A stretch of DNA of 64,000 bases from an uncultured Maricaulis sp. (GTDB lineage Bacteria; Pseudomonadota; Alphaproteobacteria; Caulobacterales; Maricaulaceae): positions 2,161,493 through 2,225,492 of the forward strand of contig OZ244254.1 in assembly GCA_965217205.1 (NCBI GenBank), in the 5' to 3' direction. Position numbers and translations under genes: made by a program. Positions 1 through 48,869 of the stretch are shown here, piece after piece. How positions within the stretch are numbered: the first letter of the stretch is position 1; each line of letters begins with the position of its first letter. The notes under the pieces were generated by a model. That model was not told the origin of the DNA. It saw only the letters and a program-made list of their open reading frames with translations, and did not search any database.

Positions 1-414
1 TTCCAGGGTTCGTCCTACATGTATGCCACCGCCCATGACTGGGCCCGCCTGGCCCTGCTCTACATGAATGACGGCATGGTCGATGGCGAACGCCTCCTGC
101 CGGAGGACTGGTATGACATCGTCGCCGAGCCGACCCCGGGTTCGAACGGCGAATACGGGATGGGCTTCTGGCTGCCCAATGAGCGCTCCAGCCTGCCGGC
201 CGACACCATCATGATGAGCGGTTTCCAGGGCCAGTGGGCCTATGTCATGCCGGAACAGGACCTGGTGATTGTGCGCTTCGGCGCGACCATGGGCGTAAAC
301 TCACGCTCGGGCGGGCTCGCCCTGGCCGTGCTGGACTCGCTTCAACCGCCGGTAACGGAGCCGGACGCGATTGTCGGGGAGACATCGGAAGACAGCCCGA
401 CGCCTGACGAATAG
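1..414 (+). CDS. Serine hydrolase, beta-lactamase-like (AmpC/class C family), C-terminal part; runs off the window start
   Basis: Typical C-terminal motifs 'DWARLALLYMNDG', 'YGMGFWL' and 'GFQGQWAYVMPEQDLVIVRFG'. Confidence 0.75.
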   Translation, partial: FQGSSYMYATAHDWARLALLYMNDGMVDGERLLPEDWYDIVAEPTPGSNGEYGMGFWLPNERSSLPADTIMMSGFQGQWAYVMPEQDLVIVRFGATMGVNSRSGGLALAVLDSLQPPVTEPDAIVGETSEDSPTPDE

Positions 415-1073: not shown

Positions 1074-2582
1074 ATGGCCTACAAGTCGCTTCGCGAATTC
1101 ATCGACCAGCTCGAGGCCGAGGGCGATCTCGTCCGTGTCACCACGCCGGTTTCGACCGAGCTGGAAATGACCGAGATTCACAAGCGCACCCTGCATGCCG
1201 GCGGCCCGGCCATCCTGTTTGAAAATGTCATCAATGAACGCGGCGAAAGGAGCGAGATGCCGTGCCTGGTCAATCTGTTCGGCACGGTCAAAAGGGTCGC
1301 CCAGGCGGTCACGCTGGGCGGCGAGGCCCGCACCACCGGCGCCGAGCTGCGCGAAGTTGGCGAGCTTCTTGCCTTCCTGCGCCAGCCCGAGCCACCGCGT
1401 GGGCTGAAGGAAGCCGCCGAACTCCTGCCGCTCGCCAGGACCGTGATGTCGATGCGGCCCAAGACCGTCAAAAAGGCGCCCTGCCAGGACGTGGTCCTGA
1501 CCGGCGATGATATCGATCTCGACCGCCTGCCCATCCAGACCTGCTGGCCCGGCGAACCCGCCCCGCTCATCACCTGGCCCCTGGTCGTCACCAAGGGTCC
1601 GTCAGACGACAAGCAGGATGATTTCAATCTCGGCATCTACCGCATGCAAAAGCTCGGCAAGGACCGCACGCTGATGCGCTGGCTCAAGCATCGCGGCGGC
1701 GCCCAGCATTATCAGCGCTGGAAAGACACCAAGCCCGACCCATTGCCCGCCGCCGTCGTGCTCGGCGCCGATCCCGGCACCATCCTCGCGGCGGTCACGC
1801 CGATCCCGGACACGCTGTCGGAATACCAGTTCGCCGGCATATTGCGCAGCAAGAAGGCCGAGCTGGTCGACTGCAAGACGGTCCCGCTCAAAGTGCCGGC
1901 CGAAGCCGAGATCATCCTGGAAGGCCATGTCCTGCTCGACGAATACGGCCCGGAAGGCCCCTATGGCGACCACACCGGCTACTATAATTCCGTCGAGCAT
2001 TTCCCGGTCTTCCAGATCAGCGCCATCACCATGCGCACGGATCCGATCTATCTGACCACCTATACCGGCCGTCCGCCGGACGAGCCGGCGGTGCTGGGCG
2101 AGGCCCTCAACGAGGTCTTCATTCCGCTCCTGCAGCAGCAATTCCCGGAAATCCTCGATTTCTGGCTGCCGCCGGAGGGCTGTTCCTACCGCATCGCCGT
2201 GATCTCGATGAAGAAGGCCTATGCCGGCCATGCCAAGCGCGTGATGATGGGCGCCTGGTCCTTCCTGCGGCAATTCATGTACACCAAATGGATCATCGTC
2301 GTGGACGCGGACATCAATGCGCGCGACTGGAAGGATGTGATGTGGGCCGTCTCGACCCGCATGGACCCGGCCCGCGACATCGTCACGGTTGAAAACACCC
2401 CCATCGACTATCTCGACTTCGCCTCCCCGGTCTCCGGCCTCGGCTCCAAGATCGGGCTGGATGCGACCAACAAGACCGGCCACGAGACGACGCGGGAATG
2501 GGGCGAAAAGCTCGACATGGACGACAAGACCAAGGCGCGGATCGACGCGATCTGGGGGGAATTGGGGATTGAGTTGGGATGA
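1074..2582 (+). CDS. ubiD: UbiD-family (prFMN-dependent) decarboxylase, probably 4-hydroxy-3-polyprenylbenzoate decarboxylase
   Basis: '[10 protein letters not shown]', 'GIYRMQ', '[11 protein letters not shown]', '[23 protein letters not shown]' motifs. Confidence 0.93.
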
Positions 2583-2610
2583 CTTCGGTCCGCGCGTAGC
2601 GCCCTAATCC

Positions 2611-2728
2611 TTGTCATCCCTGACGGACGCCCGGCGCAGGCCGGGCGAAGATCAGGGACCTAGCTGGTCGAACACTTGGGTCCCCGCCTTGCGTCCGGCC
2701 TTCGCCGGACATCCAGCGGGGATGACAA
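2611..2728. repeat. REP-like palindromic doublet with TTGTCATCCC...GGGATGACAA ends (copy A)
   Basis: 10-bp terminal inverted repeat; internal hairpins gcccggc-gcag-gccgggc and gtccggc-cttc-gccggac. Confidence 0.85.
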
Positions 2729-2770
2729 GCTCGCAGACCGGGCGTTTATCCCCGCGATTACCACACGCAC

Positions 2771-2876
2771 CCGTCATCCTGACGCAAGTCAGGAACCAGT
2801 CTCGCAGGCCCGATTTGGCCAATCTTGGCAACAACTTGTGTCGCAATCTGGGTCCCGGCCTGCGCCGGGATGACGG
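2771..2876. repeat. CGTC-tagged REP-like doublet (copy A)
   Basis: ccgtcatcc...ggatgacgg ends; hairpins tcctgac-gcaa-gtcagga and tcccggc-ctgc-gccggga. Confidence 0.85.
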
Positions 2877-2933
2877 TGTGTGGGGCGAAAAACTTATCCC
2901 CACCCCCTCGGCGCCAGCGCATACTCCCCTTGT

Positions 2934-3227
2934 TCCCGCGTCACCTGAGGCCCGGATTGGTTATCCGGGGGCGTGGGGAGGACGGAGCTCGTCCGGTTGG
3001 GTGGATTTGACCACCATCCGACCCGGCGTGGCCATCGGCAGGACGGCGGCACAAAGCTCGACCGTTTGATCCTGTCGGTTTCGAGACGGGGCCGGTAACG
3101 GCCTTGAGTAAATCTCCGTGTGCGAGGTGCCCCCGGCGCCACCTACACAAATTCCATAGCAAGGCACCGGCAAGGCACCTCGCACCCCTCTACGGCCCAC
3201 ACCGCCAGGCGAAATCGTCATGGCGCG
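2934..3227 (-). ncRNA. Putative structured RNA/ssDNA core of the repeat element (copy A)
   Basis: About 95% identical to 46382-46677; multiple stems; compensatory substitutions between copies; G-U wobbles favour this strand. Confidence 0.6.
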
Positions 3228-3373
3228 AATGGGCGCGTCACCCTTTCCGTCAACAGATATGAGGTGAAGCCATGTCAGCTCGCCGCCCTGCCCGCGTTGG
3301 GGTTTTCCGATCTGGCGCTCACGCGCCTTTCAATCCGGGCGGGGCGGTTGCTGACTCAAGTCTGTGCTGAGCG

Positions 3374-3446
3374 GGGGACAGGTATAATTAACGCGCCGCC
3401 CGGTCGCGCCCGGCACATCCGAGGCGCGTTAATTATACCTGTCCCC
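3374..3446. repeat. Perfect 24-bp inverted repeat GGGGACAGGTATAATTAACGCGCC / GGCGCGTTAATTATACCTGTCCCC with a 25-nt loop (MITE-like empty TIR pair)
   Basis: Read directly from the sequence; the same arms recur at 46187-46258. Confidence 0.9.
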
Positions 3447-3452
3447 ATTATT

Positions 3453-4034
3453 TCAGGTCTGGCCGGTCTTGATGCGGACATCAGCGGGCGGCGGTTTGTA
3501 GGCCTCGAAAGCGTCCAGAAGCTTGGTCGGACGGTCGGCGACGATCAGCGCGCCACGATGCTCCGGCGCGAGGAAGCCCTGTTCCGTCATCTTGTCGAGG
3601 AAGGCGACCAGCTCGTCATAATAGCCATTGACGTTGAGCAGGCCGACCGGATGGCGGTGCTGACCGAGCTGGGCCCAGGTCCAGATCTCGAACATCTCTT
3701 CCATCGTGCCAATGCCGCCGGGCATGGCGATAAAGCCCTCCGACAACTGCTCCATCTTGGCCTTGCGGGCATGCATGGATTTGACGACATGCAGCGTCGT
3801 CAGCTCCATGTGGGCGATTTCCTTGAGGGCGAGAAATTCCGGAATCACGCCGACAACCCGTCCACCCGCGGCCAGGGTCGCGTCGGCGATACGGCCCATC
3901 AAACCCACACGTCCACCGCCATAGACGAGCTCGATACCGCGTAGCGCCATGATCTGGCCAAGCCGGTCAGCCACTTCGAGAAAGGCTGGATCCTGGCCCG
4001 CATTGGAGCCGCAATACACGCAGATGGACTTCAT
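3453..4034 (-). CDS. LOG-family (TIGR00730) nucleotide phosphoribohydrolase
   Basis: 'ICVYCGS', 'LVYGGGRVGLMG', 'MHARK', 'PGGIGTMEE' motifs; start reassigned to ATG 4034. Confidence 0.92.
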   Translation of the reverse strand: MKSICVYCGSNAGQDPAFLEVADRLGQIMALRGIELVYGGGRVGLMGRIADATLAAGGRVVGVIPEFLALKEIAHMELTTLHVVKSMHARKAKMEQLSEGFIAMPGGIGTMEEMFEIWTWAQLGQHRHPVGLLNVNGYYDELVAFLDKMTEQGFLAPEHRGALIVADRPTKLLDAFEAYKPPPADVRIKTGQT

Positions 4035-4103
4035 TTTGGACCCGTTGGTCTTGGAAAGGCGGCAGGCTGTCGTATCCTGCGTCAAACCGGTTTGGAGACA
4101 AGC

Positions 4104-5222
4104 ATGAAACAGGTCGCGATCCTGATAGTCGCGCTGCTGGCGGCGGGCAAGATGCTTGCGCCCGCGGCGGCACAGATTGACGCGCCCGTCGTGCTGCCTG
4201 CCGAGGTCTGCCGTGGCTATTTCTTCGTGCCGGTCACGCTGGAAGTTCGCGACGGGGAAATGGAATCGGACCGGACGCTCTGGTTCCTCTACGACACGGG
4301 CGCCGCATCGAGTTATGTCGATCCGGACAGTATCGAACGCGTCTCCGGGCGACGGCTGGACAGCGGGGTTCGCGCCAATTTCGGGACCACGACCACGGGC
4401 CCGCTGCGCCTGACCGGTCTGCGGGCCCGGGTCCGTGATCTTGATCATCTCTCCATCGCCCTGGGTCGCGAGATTGATGGCATTCTGGAGTTCGACGCTT
4501 TCGAGGACGTCCTTTTGACGCTCGATTATGCCGCTGGCGAAATGCGGGTGGTGAACGGGGAATTGCCGAGCCCGAACGGCGAAACGGTGTTCCGGGCCAA
4601 CGGGCCGGATATTCGCCCCTGGATCCAGGTCCGTTTTCCCGGTCGCGGCACACGTCGCCTCCTGATCGACAGCGGCGCCGCGCTCAGCCCCATCATCCTG
4701 CGCGATATCGAACGCTATGACACGGTGGTGCCGCCGCGCGCCACCGGCGCCGCCGTACGATTTTCGGAGATTGAACGTCGATCGTCGGCCCGGCTCAACA
4801 CCAATGCCATGATCGGACCGAATGTCCTGGTCCAGCCGGTCATCCAGTCAACGCCCGGCACCGAAATCCTGGGCGGTCAGGCGCTGCGCCATTTCAACTG
4901 GACCTTCGATCAGCGCAATGAACGGGTTCTCATTGAGCGCAATGCGCCGGAGGTCCCGATCACCTTTGAACCGCTGGTCACCCATGGCCTGGTCCTGGTG
5001 CCGGAAAATGACGGCATGCGCGTGGCCGCGGTGATTGCCAATTCACCGGCTTTCGACGCAGGCGTAGAGATCGGCGACTTCATCACACATTTCAATGGCG
5101 CGGAGATGCGCGAGCGGTCCTGCGACCTGGACACCGGGCCGCCGGAAACTCTCGATCTGGATCTGATCCGGGACGGCGAAGCGCTGGCGCTGACGCTGAA
5201 CCTCTATCCGCTGGTCGACTAG
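4104..5222 (+). CDS. Exported aspartyl protease (two retropepsin-like lobes) with C-terminal PDZ domain
   Basis: Signal peptide; catalytic-type motifs 'FLYDTGA' and 'LLIDSGA'; PDZ-like 'VIANSPAFDAGVEIGDFITHFNG'; GGAG RBS before ATG 4104. Confidence 0.78.
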   Translation: MKQVAILIVALLAAGKMLAPAAAQIDAPVVLPAEVCRGYFFVPVTLEVRDGEMESDRTLWFLYDTGAASSYVDPDSIERVSGRRLDSGVRANFGTTTTGPLRLTGLRARVRDLDHLSIALGREIDGILEFDAFEDVLLTLDYAAGEMRVVNGELPSPNGETVFRANGPDIRPWIQVRFPGRGTRRLLIDSGAALSPIILRDIERYDTVVPPRATGAAVRFSEIERRSSARLNTNAMIGPNVLVQPVIQSTPGTEILGGQALRHFNWTFDQRNERVLIERNAPEVPITFEPLVTHGLVLVPENDGMRVAAVIANSPAFDAGVEIGDFITHFNGAEMRERSCDLDTGPPETLDLDLIRDGEALALTLNLYPLVD

Positions 5223-6304: not shown

Positions 6305-6660
6305 TCCGCGGCACTGGCCGTCAAACTGGCAAGCGTGCTCGCACTCCAGCCGACTGATACGACAGTACCGGCCTCGATAACAGGACGTTTGATGAGGGTC
6401 GGATGAGCAATCAGCACACCGGCCGGGTCATCCTCGGCGATGGCGCGATCCTCGTCCGACATGTTGCGCCAGGTCGTCGAGCGCGTATTGACCAGCGCCT
6501 TGGCGCCGACTGCATCGAGCCAGTCGGGAACCTTGACGACCCGGTCCACCTCCTCGCGGATATCGACAAAGCGATGAGCCAGGCCGGCTTCATCCAGAGC
6601 TTTCATGGCCTTCTTGCAGCTATCGCAATTCTTCAGGCCATAAACCGTCAATCCTGCCAC
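6301..6660 (-). CDS. ArsC/Spx (YffB-like) family protein
   Basis: 'VYGLKNCDSCKKA', 'LVNTRSTTWR', 'HPTLIKRPV'; GTG start at 6660 with GGAGAG RBS. Confidence 0.85.
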   Translation of the reverse strand: MAGLTVYGLKNCDSCKKAMKALDEAGLAHRFVDIREEVDRVVKVPDWLDAVGAKALVNTRSTTWRNMSDEDRAIAEDDPAGVLIAHPTLIKRPVIEAGTVVSVGWSASTLASLTASAAE

Positions 6661-6690
6661 GAAACTCTCCCCATACGCTTTCAATTCTGA

Positions 6691-7836
6691 CTACTCGGCG
6701 GCTTCAATCCTGTCACGATCAGCCCGCAGCTCGGCGGCGCGGGCTTCGACCATTTCCACGATATGCTCGACCATTTCCTCATTGGAGACATTGTGGTCGG
6801 GCCGACCAGAGACATACATCTTGCCACGCCCCGCCCCGCCGCCGGTGAAGCCCAGATCGGTCATCAAGGCTTCGCCGGGTCCGTTGACCACGCAGCCGAT
6901 GATCGACAGCGAGATCGGTTCGGAAATATGCGCCAGCCGGCTCTCCAGCGTCTCGACCGTACGGATCACGTCGAAGCCCTGACGGGCACAGGACGGGCAG
7001 GCGATGATATTGACGCCCCGGGTCCGCAGGCCCAGTGATTTGAGAATGTCGAAGCCGACCTTCACCTCTTCCTCCGGCTCGGCGGAGAGCGAGACACGGA
7101 TCGTGTCGCCAATCCCGGCCCACAGGAGCGAACCGATCCCGATGGAGGATTTGACCGTGCCGATCCGTGTCCCGCCCGCCTCGGTCACGCCGAGATGGAG
7201 CGGTGCATCCGTGGCCTCGGACAGGGCCTGATAGGCCGCGACAGTCAGGAAGGCGTCCGACGCCTTCACCGAAATCTTGTAGTCGCGGAAATCGAGGTCA
7301 TCGAGGATACGGGCATGATCGAGGGCGCTTTCCACCATCGCCTCGGGACAGGGCTCACCGTATTTCTCCAGCAGATGGCGTTCCAGCGAACCGGCATTGA
7401 CCCCGATGCGGATGGCACAGCCGTGATCACGCGCCGCCTGGACGACATCCTTCACCCGCTCCATCGAGCCGATATTGCCCGGATTGATCCGCAGGCAGGC
7501 CGCCCCGGCCTCGGCCGCTTCGATGCCGCGCTTGTAGTGGAAATGGATATCCGCGATCAGCGGCACATTCGCCGCTTTGGCAATCGTCCTGAAAGCCGCG
7601 GTCGAGTCCTCATCCGGGCAGGAAACGCGGACCAGATCAACGCCCGCCTCTTCACAGCGCCGGATCTGGTCAATCGTCGCGCCGGCATCAGAGGTGGGTG
7701 TATTGGTCATGGTCTGGACGCTGATCGGGGCATCGCCGCCGACCTCGAGCGGTCCGACCTTGATGGTGCGGCTCTTGCGGCGCTCGATCATCCGCCAGGG
7801 ACGGACCGAGCGCGGATCAGCGCTGGATTGTGACAT
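6691..7836 (-). CDS. ispG: 4-hydroxy-3-methylbut-2-en-1-yl diphosphate synthase (flavodoxin)
   Basis: '[10 protein letters not shown]', 'ADIHF', 'RINPGNIG', 'CPSCAR', 'GCVVNGPGE'. Confidence 0.97.
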
Positions 7837-44288: not shown

Positions 44289-46187
44289 ATGAGCCAACCG
44301 CCTGCCGATCCGGACGCGTTCAAGCGTGCCCTGTCCATCACCACCCGCGCCATTGCCGGCGACCGGGAGCTCGACGTGCGCTTTGGTGGCGAGATTGCCG
44401 GCCTGTCGGGCGGGCGCATGGTCCTGCCCAATCCCGGCAGTGAACCCTCGCCGGAGGCGGCAGCTGCCGTGCGCGGCCGGGCCGATGCCCTGGCCCTGCG
44501 CCTGGCCCATCATGACGAGGCCGCCCATGTCCGTGTCCTGCCGCCGGGCGCGACCGCACGCGCTATCTTCCATGCGGCCGAACAGGCCCGCGTCGAGGGT
44601 CTGGGCGCCCGGGACATGCGCGGTATGGCGGGCAATCTCGAAGCGGCCCTGGCCATGCGCTGCAAGCAGAAGGGCTGGCAGCGGGTCGAGGACCGGCAGT
44701 CTGCCCCGATGGAGGAGGCCCTCGCCCTTCTGGTCCGCGAACGCATCACCGGTCAGCCCTCCCCGCGCGAAGCGGATGGCCTGATGAATCTCTGGCGCGA
44801 CCAGATGGAAAGCGTGGCCGGCCTGTCGCTGGATGCCCTGGCCGAAAACGCCGACGACCAGACCGCCTTCGCCGATCTGTTGCGCACGGTCATCCAGGAT
44901 CTCGATCTCTCCGACGAACTCGGCGGCGATCCCGATCAATCGGAAAATCCCGAAGACGAGGATGAAGGCGTCGATCGCGAGGAACGCACCGGCGATGATG
45001 CCGAAGGCGACGACCAGCAGGGTGACCAGCCCGACACGCCTGATGCGGCCGGCACCGCCGGCGATGAAGACGAGATCAATGCCGACACGGATGATGCCGA
45101 GACCCGTGTCGATGCGATGGATGATGAGGGCGCCGCACAAACGGCCATGCGTCCGAACTGGCAGCCGGCCAATGATCCCGATGCCAAGTTCTACAAGGTC
45201 TTCACGCGCGAGTTCGACGAAATCATCCAGGCTTCCGATCTGTGCGAGCCGGACGAACTGGAACGCTTGCGCAAATATCTCGACAATACGCTGAAAGGCC
45301 TCGACCAGGTCGTCGGCCGCCTGGCCAACCGGCTGCAGCGCCGCCTGATGGCGCAGCAGGAACGGGCCTGGAATTTCGACCTCGAGGAAGGCGTGCTGGA
45401 CGGCTCCCGCCTCGCCCGTGTCATCGCCGACCCGACCCTGCCGCTCTCCTACAAGCAGGAGAGCGATACCGAATTCCGCGACACCATCGTCACCCTGGTG
45501 CTGGACAATTCCGGCTCCATGCGCGGTCGGCCGATCATGGTCGCAGCGGCCTGTGCCGACATCCTCGCCCGCACGCTGGAACGCTGCGGCGTGAAGACCG
45601 AGATTCTCGGCTTCACCACCAAGGCCTGGAAGGGCGGGCGCTCGAAGGAAAAATGGCTGGCCGAAGGCAAGCCGCCGCATCCGGGCCGGCTCAATGATCT
45701 GCGCCACATCATCTACAAGGCGGCCGACACACCCTGGCGCCGCGCCCGGGTCAATCTCGGCCTGATGATGCGCGAGGGCCTGTTGAAGGAAAATATCGAT
45801 GGCGAGGCCCTGATGTGGGCCTGGAAACGCATGGCCGCCCGCCCGGAACAGCGCCGCATCATGATGGTGATCTCGGACGGCGCCCCGGTCGATGACGGCA
45901 CCCAATCGGCCAATTCCGCCGGCTATCTGGAACGCCATCTGCGCGAAACCATCGCCATGATCGAAACCCGTTCGGAAGTCGAACTGCTCGCCATCGGCAT
46001 CGGCCATGACGTCACCCGCTGGTATCGCCGCGCGGTGACGATCAATGACGTCGAGCAACTCGGCGGCGCCATGACCGACCAGCTCGCCGCCCTGTTCGAG
46101 GAAGACGGCGGCAAGGGCACCGGCTTTTCCAGCGGTAAGCAGGGCATGAGCCGGACGGACTTCTCCTCAATCGCGGGGCGTGTTTAG
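44289..46187 (+). CDS. cobT: CobT (vWA-domain partner of CobS)
   Basis: Acidic linker, '[10 protein letters not shown]', '[12 protein letters not shown]', '[11 protein letters not shown]', 'ISDGAPVDD'. Confidence 0.95.
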
Positions 46188-46258
46188 GGGACAGGTATAA
46201 TTAACGCGCGGCTCGCACCGACCTGCGCCACGGCGACGCGTTAATTATACCTGTCCCC
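46187..46258. repeat. Perfect 22-bp inverted repeat GGGGACAGGTATAATTAACGCG / CGCGTTAATTATACCTGTCCCC with a 28-nt loop
   Basis: Same arms as 3374-3446, different loop; begins in the cobT stop codon. Confidence 0.9.
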
Positions 46259-46381
46259 CGTTCAGCGGCCGTCCCGCCCGCCTGGCGACGCAAGTGCGTC
46301 AGACAGGAATTGCCAGCGACGGGCGGGAAGGCGCGCCAGTGGGGCTCCTTTCCTGTGTTTGAAGTGATCGACAGGTTTGCC

Positions 46382-46677
46382 CGCGCCATGACGATTTCGC
46401 CTGGCGGTGTGGGCCGTAGAGGGGTGCGAGGTGCCTTGCCGGTGCCTTGCTATGGAATTTGTGTAGGTGGCGCCGGGGGCACCTCGCACACGGAGATTTA
46501 CTCAGGGCCGTTACCGGCCCCGTCTCGAAACCGATGGGAGAAAGCAGTCGAGCTTTGTGCTGCCGTCCCATCGATGGCCACGCCGGGTCGGGTGGTGGTC
46601 AACTCCACCAAACCGGACGAGCTCCGTCCTCCCCACGCCCCCGGATAACCAATCCGGGCCTCAGGTGACGCGGGAAC
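46382..46677 (+). ncRNA. Putative structured RNA/ssDNA core of the repeat element (copy B)
   Basis: Stems gtgcgaggtgcc/ggcacctcgcac, ccggtgcc/ggcgccgg, cgatggga/tcccatcg, tggtgg/ccacca, ggacg/cgtcc, cccggat/atccggg. Confidence 0.6.
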
Positions 46678-46732
46678 TGGAGGATTATGGGGCGGGCCGG
46701 ATGGGGTGCGGATAAGTTTTATGCCCCAAACA

Positions 46733-46838
46733 CCGTCATCCCGGCGCAGGCCGGGACCCAGCTTGCGATGCAAGTTGTTGCCGGGATTGGCGAAATCGGC
46801 CCTGCGAGACTGGGTCCTGACTTTCGTCAGGATGACGG
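46733..46838. repeat. CGTC-tagged REP-like doublet (copy B)
   Basis: ccgtcatcccggcgcaggccggga ... tcctgactttcgtcaggatgacgg. Confidence 0.85.
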
Positions 46839-46880
46839 GTGTGTGTGGTAATCGCGGGGATAAATGCCCGGTTTTCGAGC

Positions 46881-47000
46881 TTGTCATCCCGGCTAAATGT
46901 CCGGCGAAGTCCGGACGCAGGACGGGGACCTAACTCGTTGCAATCATATAGGTCCCTGCCTTTCGCCCCGCCTGCGCGGGGCGTCCATCAGGGATGACAA
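46881..47000. repeat. REP-like doublet with TTGTCATCCC...GGGATGACAA ends (copy B)
   Basis: 10-bp terminal inverted repeat plus internal hairpins homologous to 2611-2728. Confidence 0.85.
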
Positions 47001-47040
47001 AATCGCTGTGATACTGCGGGGTTTTCCCCCGGCCCGCACC

Positions 47041-47610
47041 CTAATTCCCGAAGCGATAGCCCAGGCGGATGCCGGCATTGTCGAGCGCCTGGTTGCGGCC
47101 GGAGGCGAGGATCTGGCCGTGCGAAATGTGCTCGTAATAAACGCCCACAGACCAGCGGTCATCGAGGTCGTAATCGAGGCCGATGGCGTTGTGGAAGAGG
47201 ATTTCATTGCCCATCAGCGCGCGCGTGGTCGCCAGGCGAATGCGCGTCGGGTCGCCCGGGGGCGAGTTGGGATCAATATCCTCGACACCGTCATTATAGG
47301 ACAGGCCGGAGCGGAATTCGAAATTGAGATTCTCGGCGACCTCGAAATCCCAGGCCAAACCCGTGCCACCGAAATTGGTCAGGCCATTCGTGTTGAAGGA
47401 GCCGTAGAGATAGGGGCGCGGCGACCAGATCGCGTCGAGAAAATCCGGTGAGGCAAAGAGCAGATCGACGGTGATGTTCGGGCCATCTTCGACATGATCG
47501 GCCAGATCATGCGCGGTCACACCGAGGCGGAATTCCATGCCACGATCATCGGCAAGACCGGCTCCGGTGAGCAGGGCAAAAGCGGCGGTGCTCGTCAGGA
47601 TATGTTTCAT
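47041..47610 (-). CDS. Outer-membrane acyloxyacyl hydrolase (lipid A deacylase PagL/LpxR-like family)
   Basis: Signal peptide; 'LDAIWSPRPYL', 'YEHISHG' catalytic-type H-x-S-H, 'NQALDNAGIRLGYRF' barrel end. Confidence 0.75.
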   Translation of the reverse strand: MKHILTSTAAFALLTGAGLADDRGMEFRLGVTAHDLADHVEDGPNITVDLLFASPDFLDAIWSPRPYLYGSFNTNGLTNFGGTGLAWDFEVAENLNFEFRSGLSYNDGVEDIDPNSPPGDPTRIRLATTRALMGNEILFHNAIGLDYDLDDRWSVGVYYEHISHGQILASGRNQALDNAGIRLGYRFGN

Positions 47611-47675
47611 GATGTCCCCTCGAGGTCGCACGCGCGACCGGTCTGTTGTCGGTAGCTCACGGGATAAAGCGTGTC

Positions 47676-48869
47676 TCAACCCGCGTCCAGCGCTTCGCGA
47701 TAGGCCCAGTCGAGCCAGGGACCGAGTGCGGCCAAATCATCACGCTCGACCGTCGGCCCGCACCAGATGCGGATACCCGGCACCGAGGCGCGATGCATAT
47801 TGATGTCGAGCGCGGCATTCTCGCGCTCCAGAAGCGATGAGATTTTCTTCGTCAGATCCCATTGGGCGTCCTCACCCGCCGCAATCACGGCCGGGTCGGT
47901 ATATTTCAAGGTCACCGAAACCGGCGAGCGGTGGTCCGGATTCTCGCACAGATAATCGATCCAGTCGGCCTGGTTGACCCAGGCGTCCAGGGCCGCGAAA
48001 TTCTCTTCGCGACGCCGGATGAGCTCCGGAAGGCCGCCAATGCGCGAGGCCCATTTCAGGGCGGCGAGATAGTCCTCAACCGCCATCAATGACGGCGTGT
48101 TGAGGGTCGAGCCCTCATAGATGCCCATATTGGCCTTGCCCTTGGCGTGCAGCTGCAACAGGCCCGGGATCGGCCAGTCCGGACGCCAGGTGTTGAGGCG
48201 CTCAATGGCGCGCGGGCTCATCACCAGCATGCCGTGCTGGGCTTCGCCGCCCATGCATTTCTGCCAGGAGAAGGTCAGCACATCGATCTTCGACCAGTCG
48301 ATCTCGACCGCGAAGGCGGCGGAGGTCGCATCACACAAGGTCAGCCCCTCACGATCGGCATCAATCCAGTCAAAGCCCGGAATCCAGACCCCGGCGGCCG
48401 TACCGTTCAGCGTGAAGATCGCATCGCGCTTGCCATCATACTGATCAATATCCGGCAGCACGCCTGGCTCGGTCTGGAAGACGCGAAGGTCTTGCAGCTT
48501 GAGCTCGTCGCGGGCGTCATAGGTCCAGCGATTGCCGAATACATCCCAGGAGAAAACATCGGTGCCGCGCTGGCCCAGGAGCGACCACATCGCCGCTTCC
48601 ATGGCGCCGGTATCCGAGCCCGGCATGAGGGCGACATGATAGCCCTCGGGCAATTCGAGCAGGGCATGGGTGCGTTCGATGGCTTCCTTGATCCGGGCGA
48701 CCGGCGCCCCGGCGCGGTGAGTGCGCGACAATGGCGCGTCGGCCAGCGCATCCCAGGACCAGCCCGGATATTTCTTCACCGGCCCGCAGGAAAAGCGCGG
48801 GTCGGCGGGACGCAGGACAGGCTTGGGATTATTGCTGCGGGTCGCGGTGGGCGTATCGGTATCAGCCAA
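47676..48869 (-). CDS. serC: Phosphoserine aminotransferase (alphaproteobacterial type)
   Basis: 'PRFSCGP', 'PGSDTGAME', 'DATSAAFA', 'FSWQK..GGE..HGM', 'RIWCGPTVE'; TTG start inferred. Confidence 0.88.
   Translation of the reverse strand: MADTDTPTATRSNNPKPVLRPADPRFSCGPVKKYPGWSWDALADAPLSRTHRAGAPVARIKEAIERTHALLELPEGYHVALMPGSDTGAMEAAMWSLLGQRGTDVFSWDVFGNRWTYDARDELKLQDLRVFQTEPGVLPDIDQYDGKRDAIFTLNGTAAGVWIPGFDWIDADREGLTLCDATSAAFAVEIDWSKIDVLTFSWQKCMGGEAQHGMLVMSPRAIERLNTWRPDWPIPGLLQLHAKGKANMGIYEGSTLNTPSLMAVEDYLAALKWASRIGGLPELIRRREENFAALDAWVNQADWIDYLCENPDHRSPVSVTLKYTDPAVIAAGEDAQWDLTKKISSLLERENAALDINMHRASVPGIRIWCGPTVERDDLAALGPWLDWAYREALDAG

Follow-up and report, generated by a model that had tools for sequence, protein, structure and literature searches.

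A candidate family of structured RNA genes among separate repeats at two look-alike intergenic loci of Maricaulis

Two look-alike loci and their structured core

We studied a 64,000-nt stretch of DNA from an uncultured Maricaulis sp. (hereafter the window, i.e., the whole stretch that was analysed), which holds two look-alike non-coding stretches of about 820 bp: copy A at 2611-3446 (plus strand) and copy B at 46187-47000 (inverted). In the window alignment both can be aligned end to end. Each lies between convergent genes, namely UbiD (1074-2582, +) and a LOG/lysine-decarboxylase-like gene (3453-4448, -) for copy A, and CobT (44289-46187, +) and a PagL-like gene (47041-47679, -) for copy B. 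An initial annotation, made from the sequence only, had described this convergent setting correctly. The same holds for the identical order of modules in both copies: a doublet of repetitive extragenic palindromes (REP1), linker 1, a second such doublet (REP2), linker 2, a core, a variable slot and a perfect palindrome. It had also named the composite the best candidate of the window for an undescribed system, and in our view, too, no other feature of the region is as interesting. The main subject of this study is the core, a structured RNA.

The likeness of copies A and B is far above chance. Repeat detection reports inverted arms at 2676-3227 / 46382-46933 (552 nt, 91%) and further arms at 2611-2662 / 46949-47000 (52 nt, 88%) and 3366-3407 / 46225-46266 (42 nt, 88%). 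A BLAST search with the whole of copy A yields 619 nt at 90% identity (E = 0) plus the palindrome block. Respective identities between A and B differ strongly among modules, i.e., 83% for REP1, 91% for linker 1, 90% for REP2, 73% for linker 2, 95.3% for the core, 54% for the slot, 100% for the palindrome arms and 56% for the palindrome loop. Given this range of 54-100%, the two copies do not represent one recent duplication of a unit.

In copy A, the structured RNA gene spans 2927-3243 on the plus strand, i.e., the initially annotated core (2932-3227) plus a terminal hairpin, and in copy B it spans 46366-46682 on the minus strand; the respective covariance-model matches score 341 and 347 bits. 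The model was built from 21 full-length copies and finds 29 copies in total, within the window only A and B. Besides these two, the set comprises five loci from Maricaulis genomes and 22 from metagenomes, all found by exact-pattern scans, such that the true range of the family may be wider. We label the loci recovered from Maricaulis genomes and marine metagenomes L###, sequencing runs with assembled contigs X##, and copy A in alignments winA. In the genome scan, a core 24-mer matched only in M. maris and in metagenome-assembled genomes (MAGs) of Maricaulis sp., and the family appears to be one of Maricaulis and related marine metagenome sequences. The contig of L015 starts (1-169) with a second, truncated RNA copy.

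For the 21 sequences, RNAalifold provides a fold of 80 base pairs in 10 helices with compensatory double changes in 32 pairs. On this structure 97.8% of the paired cells can pair, compared to 34.5-45.9% when the partners are slid by 1-3 columns. The covariation score is 0.277 vs. at most 0.079 for slid partners, and 0/500 shuffles reach the observed values. Changes on both sides are found at at least 2 pairs in each of the helices (10/10), and compensatory differences occur even between A and B, e.g., CGGCAGGA/TCCTGTCG vs. CGATGGGA/TCCCATCG. The fold comprises a hairpin at the 5' side, a junction of several helices that is closed by a long-range helix, and, at the 3' side, a long hairpin as well as the terminal one. 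The structured nucleic-acid element that the initial annotation had postulated is thus present as a covarying fold.

The fold is also strand-specific. Among the paired cells 201 are G.U, and pairing drops from 97.8% on the plus strand of copy A to 86.3% on the opposite strand. Furthermore, one of the junction helices carries a GNRA tetraloop in every sequence (GUAA in 11, GCAA in 10) on a stem that covaries. The G.U cells and the GNRA loop place the RNA on the plus strand for copy A and on the minus strand for copy B, which we also infer from the U-run and the promoter-like box described below. The core further contains three segments that never vary and are complementary to one another (GGAGCUCG, CACAAAGCUCGAC and GGUUUCGAGAC); the self-complementary GAGCUC is part of the first. 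They may engage in a pseudoknot, a switch or a kissing contact.

When compared with Rfam 15, the window showed no match at gathering thresholds, and at E ≤ 10 the region gave sub-threshold hairpin matches to the REP doublets only. The microRNA and WsnRNA46 matches among these were rejected as long-hairpin artefacts. The divergent cores of L012, L013 and L015 likewise have no match in Rfam 15. A blastn search of plasmid and phage collections with core plus slot and with two divergent cores found nothing, viral contigs gave 0 matches to the core or palindrome patterns, and the literature searched does not describe any RNA or repeat of Maricaulis. The element had initially been annotated as not recognised among described ones, which holds for Rfam 15 and for the plasmid, phage and viral collections. 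A coding role of the core was rejected: no frame is open throughout the copies, and 1-nt indels separate them.

One could regard A and B as a functionless segmental duplication of an intergenic region, kept alike by chance or recency, as the initial annotation had allowed for. In favour of this, there are only two full assemblies in the genome. The 29 cores across species and the 32 covarying pairs speak against it, as do the 95% A/B identity of the core next to a slot of 54% and the transcription of the core (see below). For the core, covariation and cross-species conservation rule an ordinary segmental duplication out, and as an account of both copies it has next to no probability.

Upstream boxes, transcription and the 3' domain

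Linker 2, here called box 2, is a promoter-like sequence at 2888-2931 (+) in copy A and, based on the upstream comparison, at 46678-46721 (-; AAAACTTATCCGCACCCC...CCCCATAATCC) in copy B. It is conserved in 23 copies, among them copies with cores that are only ~75% identical, with consensus aAAACTTaTCC.C.CCCC-N~11-CgCATAmTCC, and the first RNA helix starts 7-8 nt downstream of it. Linker 1, or box 1, was defined from the upstream sequences of 24 copies (2729-2763, +, in copy A; GTTTATCCCCGCG...; 91% between A and B). A box 1 (TTTATCCCCGC...) precedes nearly every RNA copy and looks like a tandem duplicate of box 2. The linkers are homologous between the copies as initially annotated (91% and 73%) and are promoter-like boxes. 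Box 2 would drive transcription of the RNA; a consensus scan of 2550-3500 for sigma-70 promoters and terminators returned 0 sites. Both tandem boxes upstream of the RNA genes contain TTATCCCCR, which we take, as a lead only, to resemble the DnaA box TTATCCACA.

The sequence between box 1 and box 2 is variable. In L003, L005 and L017 the boxes are spaced by ~35 nt without a doublet, while elsewhere the spacer is occupied by a doublet of the REP2 type or by another repeat (CCTTCTCCC...CCCTCTCCCnnGGGAGAGGG). The spacer is an insertion hot spot for differing repeat families, and the REP doublet does not belong to the RNA gene. A second repeat family of ~130 nt (CCTTCTCCCnnGGGAGAAGG ... CCCCTCACCC ... 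CCCTCTCCCnnGGGAGAGGG) was observed in the spacer of L002, L018, L027, L014, L001, L010 and L011.

The core is transcribed. Run X28 contains a 336-nt contig of depth 107 that covers 2945-3280, with coverage of about 0 for REP2/box 2 and the flanking genes, while all other contigs within 20 kb have a depth of at most 30. Run X27 provides a contig over the core only, and the core is enriched in the metatranscriptomes X25 and X26. With regard to the 3' end, the divergent copies L012, L013, L015, L021, L006, L007 and L026 show a covarying terminal hairpin followed by AUUUUGG, which constitutes an intrinsic terminator. The exact RNA ends given here are predicted.

Downstream of the terminal hairpin, the variable slot looks like a less-conserved 3' domain of the RNA. 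In copy A (3244-3365, +) it comprises a Shine-Dalgarno-like (SD-like) GAGG, an ATG at 3272, ~32 non-conserved codons and a GGCGC-N4-GCGCC hairpin with a long-range stem. Copy B (46259-46365, -) carries a single-copy domain of the B type, which is common to L002, L018, L016 and L008. For either type, A or B, related sequences occur in other species. RNAalifold places a hairpin (GGCGC-N4-GCGCC or GACGC-N4-GCGUC) inside the long-range stem, and both vary between copies in a pair-preserving manner, as judged by eye. A conserved peptide encoded by the short open reading frame (ORF) was considered and rejected, since the frame is shifted between close copies (winA vs. L020).

The slot of copy A is homologous to the first ~115 nt of an orphan gene at another locus, here called gene X. 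In L005, L027, L014, L017, L009 and L025, a conserved ORF of ~150-160 aa begins with the slot's SD-like motif and ATG, while the other Maricaulis RNA copies, A and B included, retain only the first ~115 nt of gene X. The N-terminus of its product (L005 5468-5935, -) is rich in arginine (MSRRLP...), and the motifs LGLARDFIAQARA and PEPRWPESWEL are conserved; no relatives were found in Pfam, NCBIfam, PHROG, PDB or plasmids.

The core might be a cis-acting, riboswitch-like 5' leader of gene X, with A, B and the others as decaying, functionless partial duplicates. The RNA does lie directly upstream of the ~150-160-aa ORF in six loci, the SD motif, the ATG and the first ~35 codons persist as the slot, and the short ORF is not conserved in partial copies. 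However, even between species with flanks that are only 74-86% identical, partial copies persist at orthologous sites, and covarying pairs are contributed by the copies at the LOG locus (winA, L003, L019, L011) as well as by B, L002 and L018. In divergent lineages the RNA occurs alone, ends in a hairpin plus U-run and is followed by convergent genes or a tRNA gene. We find the RNA upstream of and in the same orientation as a gene only at the gene X locus (6 loci) and possibly at a lipoprotein locus. For copies A, B, L002, L018, L006 and L012, the gene that they face is a convergent one or encodes a tRNA; the tRNA gene of L012 is at 262-335 (plus strand of the locus, opposite to the RNA) just downstream of the divergent RNA copy; for A, B, L002, L018 and L006, which face a convergent gene, this leaves no cis target. 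Given solitary RNAs in divergent lineages and RNAs facing convergent genes, a cis-regulatory role cannot be general, and we consider the leader explanation distinctly unlikely.

The copies at the lipoprotein locus also provide a trace of how copies arise. Here (L001 ~7150-7200, L020 ~930-960), the slot is followed by a hairpin plus CUUUUAAAA, which is terminator-like. In both copies, a 12-nt stretch (TCAGsTCTGGCC) is the same as the antisense sequence at the end of the LOG gene, which indicates that the lipoprotein-locus copy derives from the LOG-locus copy. This remnant points to copying at the DNA level without defined ends.

Repeats around the RNA gene and the independence of modules

REP1 of copy A (2611-2728; TTGTCATCCC...GGGATGACAA) is a REPIN-like inverted pair of REP hairpins with a folding energy of -78.8 kcal/mol (z -8.8). 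REP2 (2764-2887; CCGTCATCC...GGGATGACGG + GTGTGTGGGGCG; fold z -5.0) lies between box 1 and box 2. In copy B (46722-47000), the respective order is REP2 at 46722-46845, box 1 at 46846-46880 and REP1 at 46881-47000. The motif GGGATGACRR has 6 sites in the 64 kb compared to 0.94 expected, and 6/6 are within copies A and B. Summed contig depths in X1 are 17-29x single copy for REP1, with contigs diverging at 2611 and 2728, and ~31-34x for REP2, with loose ends at ~2879-2887. Both doublets are thus inverted pairs of short imperfect palindromes with a conserved head, in many dispersed extragenic copies, as is characteristic of REP/REPIN elements. No RAYT was found by tblastn in the window or the recovered loci, which is a weak test, made with an E. 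coli RAYT query. REP2 of copy A is 91% identical to that of copy B vs. 88% to its ortholog in L022.

The association with REP hairpins raises the question of whether the core acts as single-stranded DNA (ssDNA), i.e., as a Y1/HUH recognition structure, a PATE-/IS200/IS605-like relic or a TnpB/IscB omega-RNA-like scaffold. REP hairpins derive from IS200/IS605-type ends, the core is multi-copy and physically associated with them, and a strand-specific fold also fits ssDNA. The invariant GNRA tetraloop, the hairpin plus U-run and the promoter-like box are, however, features of RNA genes, and contigs from RNA runs cover the core but not the adjacent REP2 doublet. Rfam's HEARO gives no match, and no TnpA/TnpB/IscB/RAYT-like ORF was found in ~230 kb around the 29 copies (again a weak test). 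The ends lack a locus-specific, guide-like segment, that is, the sequence after the hairpin tracks the copy type and not the locus. Taken together, a function as ssDNA is very improbable.

The palindrome has perfect 22-nt arms (GGGGACAGGTATAATTAACGCG) in both copies, where none is expected by chance. In copy A, the palindrome-bearing, single-copy segment (3366-3452) holds arms at 3374-3395 / 3425-3446 around a 29-nt loop, with tail AUUAUUU and an energy of -56.7 kcal/mol; the palindrome itself ends 6 nt from the LOG stop codon. In copy B (46187-46258), the arms are at 46187-46208 / 46237-46258, base 46187 doubles as the final base of the CobT stop codon, and the palindrome is conserved in the close strain L008. 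The stems have -55 to -58 kcal/mol; copy A has the AUUAUUU tail on the plus strand, copy B is without a U-run, and the consensus scan reports 0 terminators. The palindrome probably stops transcription from the RNA gene and from the convergent gene.

The palindrome forms a small repeat family of its own. L022 holds a third member at 6636-6680 with arms GGGGACAGGTAGAATGAACGCG and a 1-nt loop, located 3 nt after a TGA stop codon within a different pair of convergent genes; its surroundings contain no RNA gene. A related palindrome is found at the matching relative place in L016, and loose ends in X2 and X4 show another arm variant in the window's species. At the locus of copy A, the palindrome is full in the window, whereas L003 (7510-7525) has none and a single TCAGGTCTG, and L024 (7054-7080; a 97.7%-identical strain) has it cut to CTGTCCCCATTATT between two TCAGGTCTG repeats. 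A contig of RNA run X26 skips it. In the window, an imperfect 9-bp direct repeat flanks the segment, i.e., TCAAGTCTG at 3354-3362 and TCAGGTCTG at 3453-3461, the latter including the LOG stop codon. The history of the locus may be either insertion with a 9-bp duplication or repeated deletion of an old element; judged by L019, the palindrome may be old at the LOG locus. The palindrome might also be a simple miniature inverted-repeat transposable element (MITE) bounded by terminal inverted repeats, but the 9-bp repeat does not abut the arms and copy B is without it.

Next, we assessed whether these modules belong together, using unitig depth in DNA runs of the same species as a proxy for copy number (single copy at depth ~266-300). 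The core amounts to ~3.7 copies of one variant plus 1 of the B variant, i.e., ~5 copies. Slot A is present in 2 copies, while the end of slot A with palindrome A, slot B with palindrome B, and the REP1-linker1-REP2 junction are each single copy. REP repeats overall reach roughly 17-34-fold summed contig depth. All junction unitigs (2683-2829, 3329-3448, 46836-46986 and 45800-46371) are single copy, i.e., the full assembly exists only twice in the genome. In the window's species ~4 copies are identical over 135 nt.

The same picture emerges across the 29 copies, where the arrangement of the window recurs only in the orthologs L022 and L008. In L003, a M. maris MAG (UbiD 97%, LOG 92% aa), core and slot are joined by another REP doublet, and the palindrome is missing. 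The core is also present in L011 and L019 (LOG ~82-83%), where the slot is shortened or absent. L022 and L024 (96-98% nt) have REPs as in the window and of the palindrome only the remnant CTGTCCCCATTATT between two TCAGGTCTG repeats. Overall, the UbiD/LOG locus holds the RNA in at least five loci (L003, L011, L019, L022 and L024), the gene X locus in 6 loci and the lipoprotein locus in L001 and L020. This orthologous retention marks stable loci and not recent hops.

These data bear on the central proposal of the initial annotation, that the whole assembly spreads as one non-autonomous unit, here taken as an element moved by a RAYT/Y1 enzyme encoded elsewhere. The shared module order with homologous linkers and the repeat elements at both ends of the homology fit this idea. 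So do the REP doublets just upstream of the RNA in many copies, divergent ones included, and the downstream palindromes recurring in L015, L016 and L019. Moreover, a M. maris MAG is without an exact-pattern copy ~43 kb from the LOG locus, such that copy B may be a lineage-specific gain; an exact look-up of the PagL-like protein gave no match, and that of CobT gave a contig ending at the repeat. On the other side stand the two full assemblies and single-copy junctions next to a core of ~5x and REPs of roughly 17-34x, the uneven A/B identity, and orthologous loci that combine the core with other or no fillers and with the palindrome present or absent. Slot types A and B with relatives in other species imply an ancient A/B divergence. 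No transposase-like ORF lies beside either copy, as initially annotated. The ends of the composite are dissimilar (a REP doublet on the left, an unrelated palindrome on the right) and form no terminal inverted repeats. Flanks 2599-2610 / 3447-3458 and 46175-46186 / 47001-47012 share no direct repeat, so that the annotated lack of a target-site duplication stands for the whole copy; only the palindrome segment of copy A has an imperfect 9-bp repeat at its flanks. Thus, neither terminal inverted repeats, target duplication nor multiple full-length copies, the hallmarks of a MITE, were found for the composite. Counting full vs. partial copies had been named as a way to decide the matter, with independent modules as the outcome that refutes the unit. 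The depths, the solitary palindrome of L022 and the orthologs L003 and L024 all reveal modules that occur independently and are fully combined only here. The claim of a single spreading unit is not supported by this comparison, and we regard such a unit as quite improbable.

As a side observation, the ~820-bp inverted repeats frame a segment of 43.6 kb (3447-46186) that could invert by homologous recombination. A metagenome contig (L008 + L024) is broken in both cores, and assemblies cannot show the orientation of this segment.

Interpretation and comparison with known systems

We consider it fairly probable that A and B are paralogous loci of an undescribed multi-copy family of structured RNA genes situated among separate repeats. 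In the corresponding scenario, box 2, preceded by its duplicate box 1, would drive an RNA of ~310 nt (plus strand in A, minus strand in B). In Maricaulis, the RNA would run on into a 3' domain of ~100-130 nt that shares ancestry with the start of gene X (~450 nt in total), with ~5 independently promoted RNA genes per genome. The REP doublets and the palindrome are separate repeat families that would have settled around the RNA gene, the doublets in the spacer between box 1 and box 2 and further upstream, the palindrome downstream at the convergent stop codon. The end-to-end likeness of A and B would then have three sources, namely shared ancestry, selection acting on the RNA and gene conversion among the copies, and requires no transposition of the assembly. 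Concerted evolution of this kind is suggested by the ~4 copies that are identical over 135 nt and by REP2 of copy A, which is closer to that of copy B than to its ortholog in L022. We favour a trans-acting folded RNA that binds protein or serves as a scaffold, with a possible additional role as the 5' leader of gene X where it precedes that gene.

Several observations weigh against this scenario. Box 2 is off the sigma-70 consensus with hexamer-like elements ~20 nt apart, and in Maricaulis copies the terminal hairpin is not followed by a clear U-run. For X29 and X25, the core exceeds the flanking genes by no more than its copy number, and the RNA evidence consists of directionless assembled contigs with unmapped ends, the RNA nature of two of the runs being a guess. 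Even divergent lineages have REP doublets ahead of the RNA gene, and in L015, L016 and L019 related palindromes lie downstream of it; such recurrent association is not fully explained by chance settling. Finally, function and protein partner of the RNA are hypothetical.

A bolder reading is a new class of large ornate RNA (a ribozyme, a self-assembling RNA or a ribonucleoprotein scaffold) with the recurrent REPs upstream and the palindrome downstream as part of a functional cassette, which we consider unlikely. Here, contacts among GGAGCUCG, CACAAAGCUCGAC and GGUUUCGAGAC might be those of a pseudoknot, of a conformational switch or of intermolecular kissing, and the RNA could be part of an unknown ribonucleoprotein, possibly with the arginine-rich gene X product. 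The cassette would provide insulators, or portable homology for copying the gene between intergenic sites by recombination.

Structured bacterial non-coding RNAs above ~300 nt with many covarying helices are rare. Among the known ones, RNase P, tmRNA, group I/II introns, OLE, GOLLD, ROOL and HEARO/omega-RNA are catalytic, scaffolding or guide RNAs. An RNA that is new to Rfam, multi-copy, transcribed and strongly constrained is thus a tractable candidate for a new RNA function, and cultured Maricaulis strains exist. The locus further illustrates the accumulation of selfish palindromic repeats next to a conserved RNA gene, and that a mosaic of this kind can come to resemble a single transposable element through gene conversion.

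Among known systems, the Maricaulis RNA resembles HEARO, raiA, ROOL, GOLLD and OLE in its length of several hundred nt and its many covarying helices, its GNRA tetraloop, its invariant single-stranded segments able to form pseudoknots, its narrow phylogenetic range and its lack of an obvious function; HEARO is likewise multi-copy. It differs from these large RNAs in that none of their Rfam 15 families matches it in sequence or structure, and in its host, a marine alphaproteobacterium. GOLLD and ROOL are usually found beside tRNAs or prophage genes, in apparent contrast to the Maricaulis RNA. In contrast to HEARO/IscB, it has no associated nuclease ORF. With regard to IS200/IS605 omega-RNAs and HEARO, neither a TnpB/IscB ORF beside the copies nor locus-specific ends nor a HEARO match was observed.

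The doublets correspond to REP/REPIN elements moved by RAYT, i.e., inverted short palindromes with a GTCATCC head that form long hairpins and are extragenic, but they do not account for core, slot and palindrome. Similar to MITEs and mobile promoters, which are short intergenic segments upstream of unrelated genes, the ~0.5-kb non-coding segment with its putative promoter recurs at several loci that are unrelated, and the L020/L001 copy bears 12 nt of the LOG end from another locus. Unlike MITEs, the unit has no terminal inverted repeats or target duplication, its boundaries vary, and orthologous sites are stable.

A further comparison is with sibling small RNA (sRNA) families under concerted evolution, such as Qrr in Vibrio and the alpha-r families of Rhizobiales. 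The Maricaulis RNA is 3-4x longer than base-pairing sRNAs and far more folded, with no seed or target evident. It shares with the sibling families several separately promoted RNA paralogs per genome at conserved intergenic positions, and within-genome paralogs that are closer to each other than orthologs are between species.

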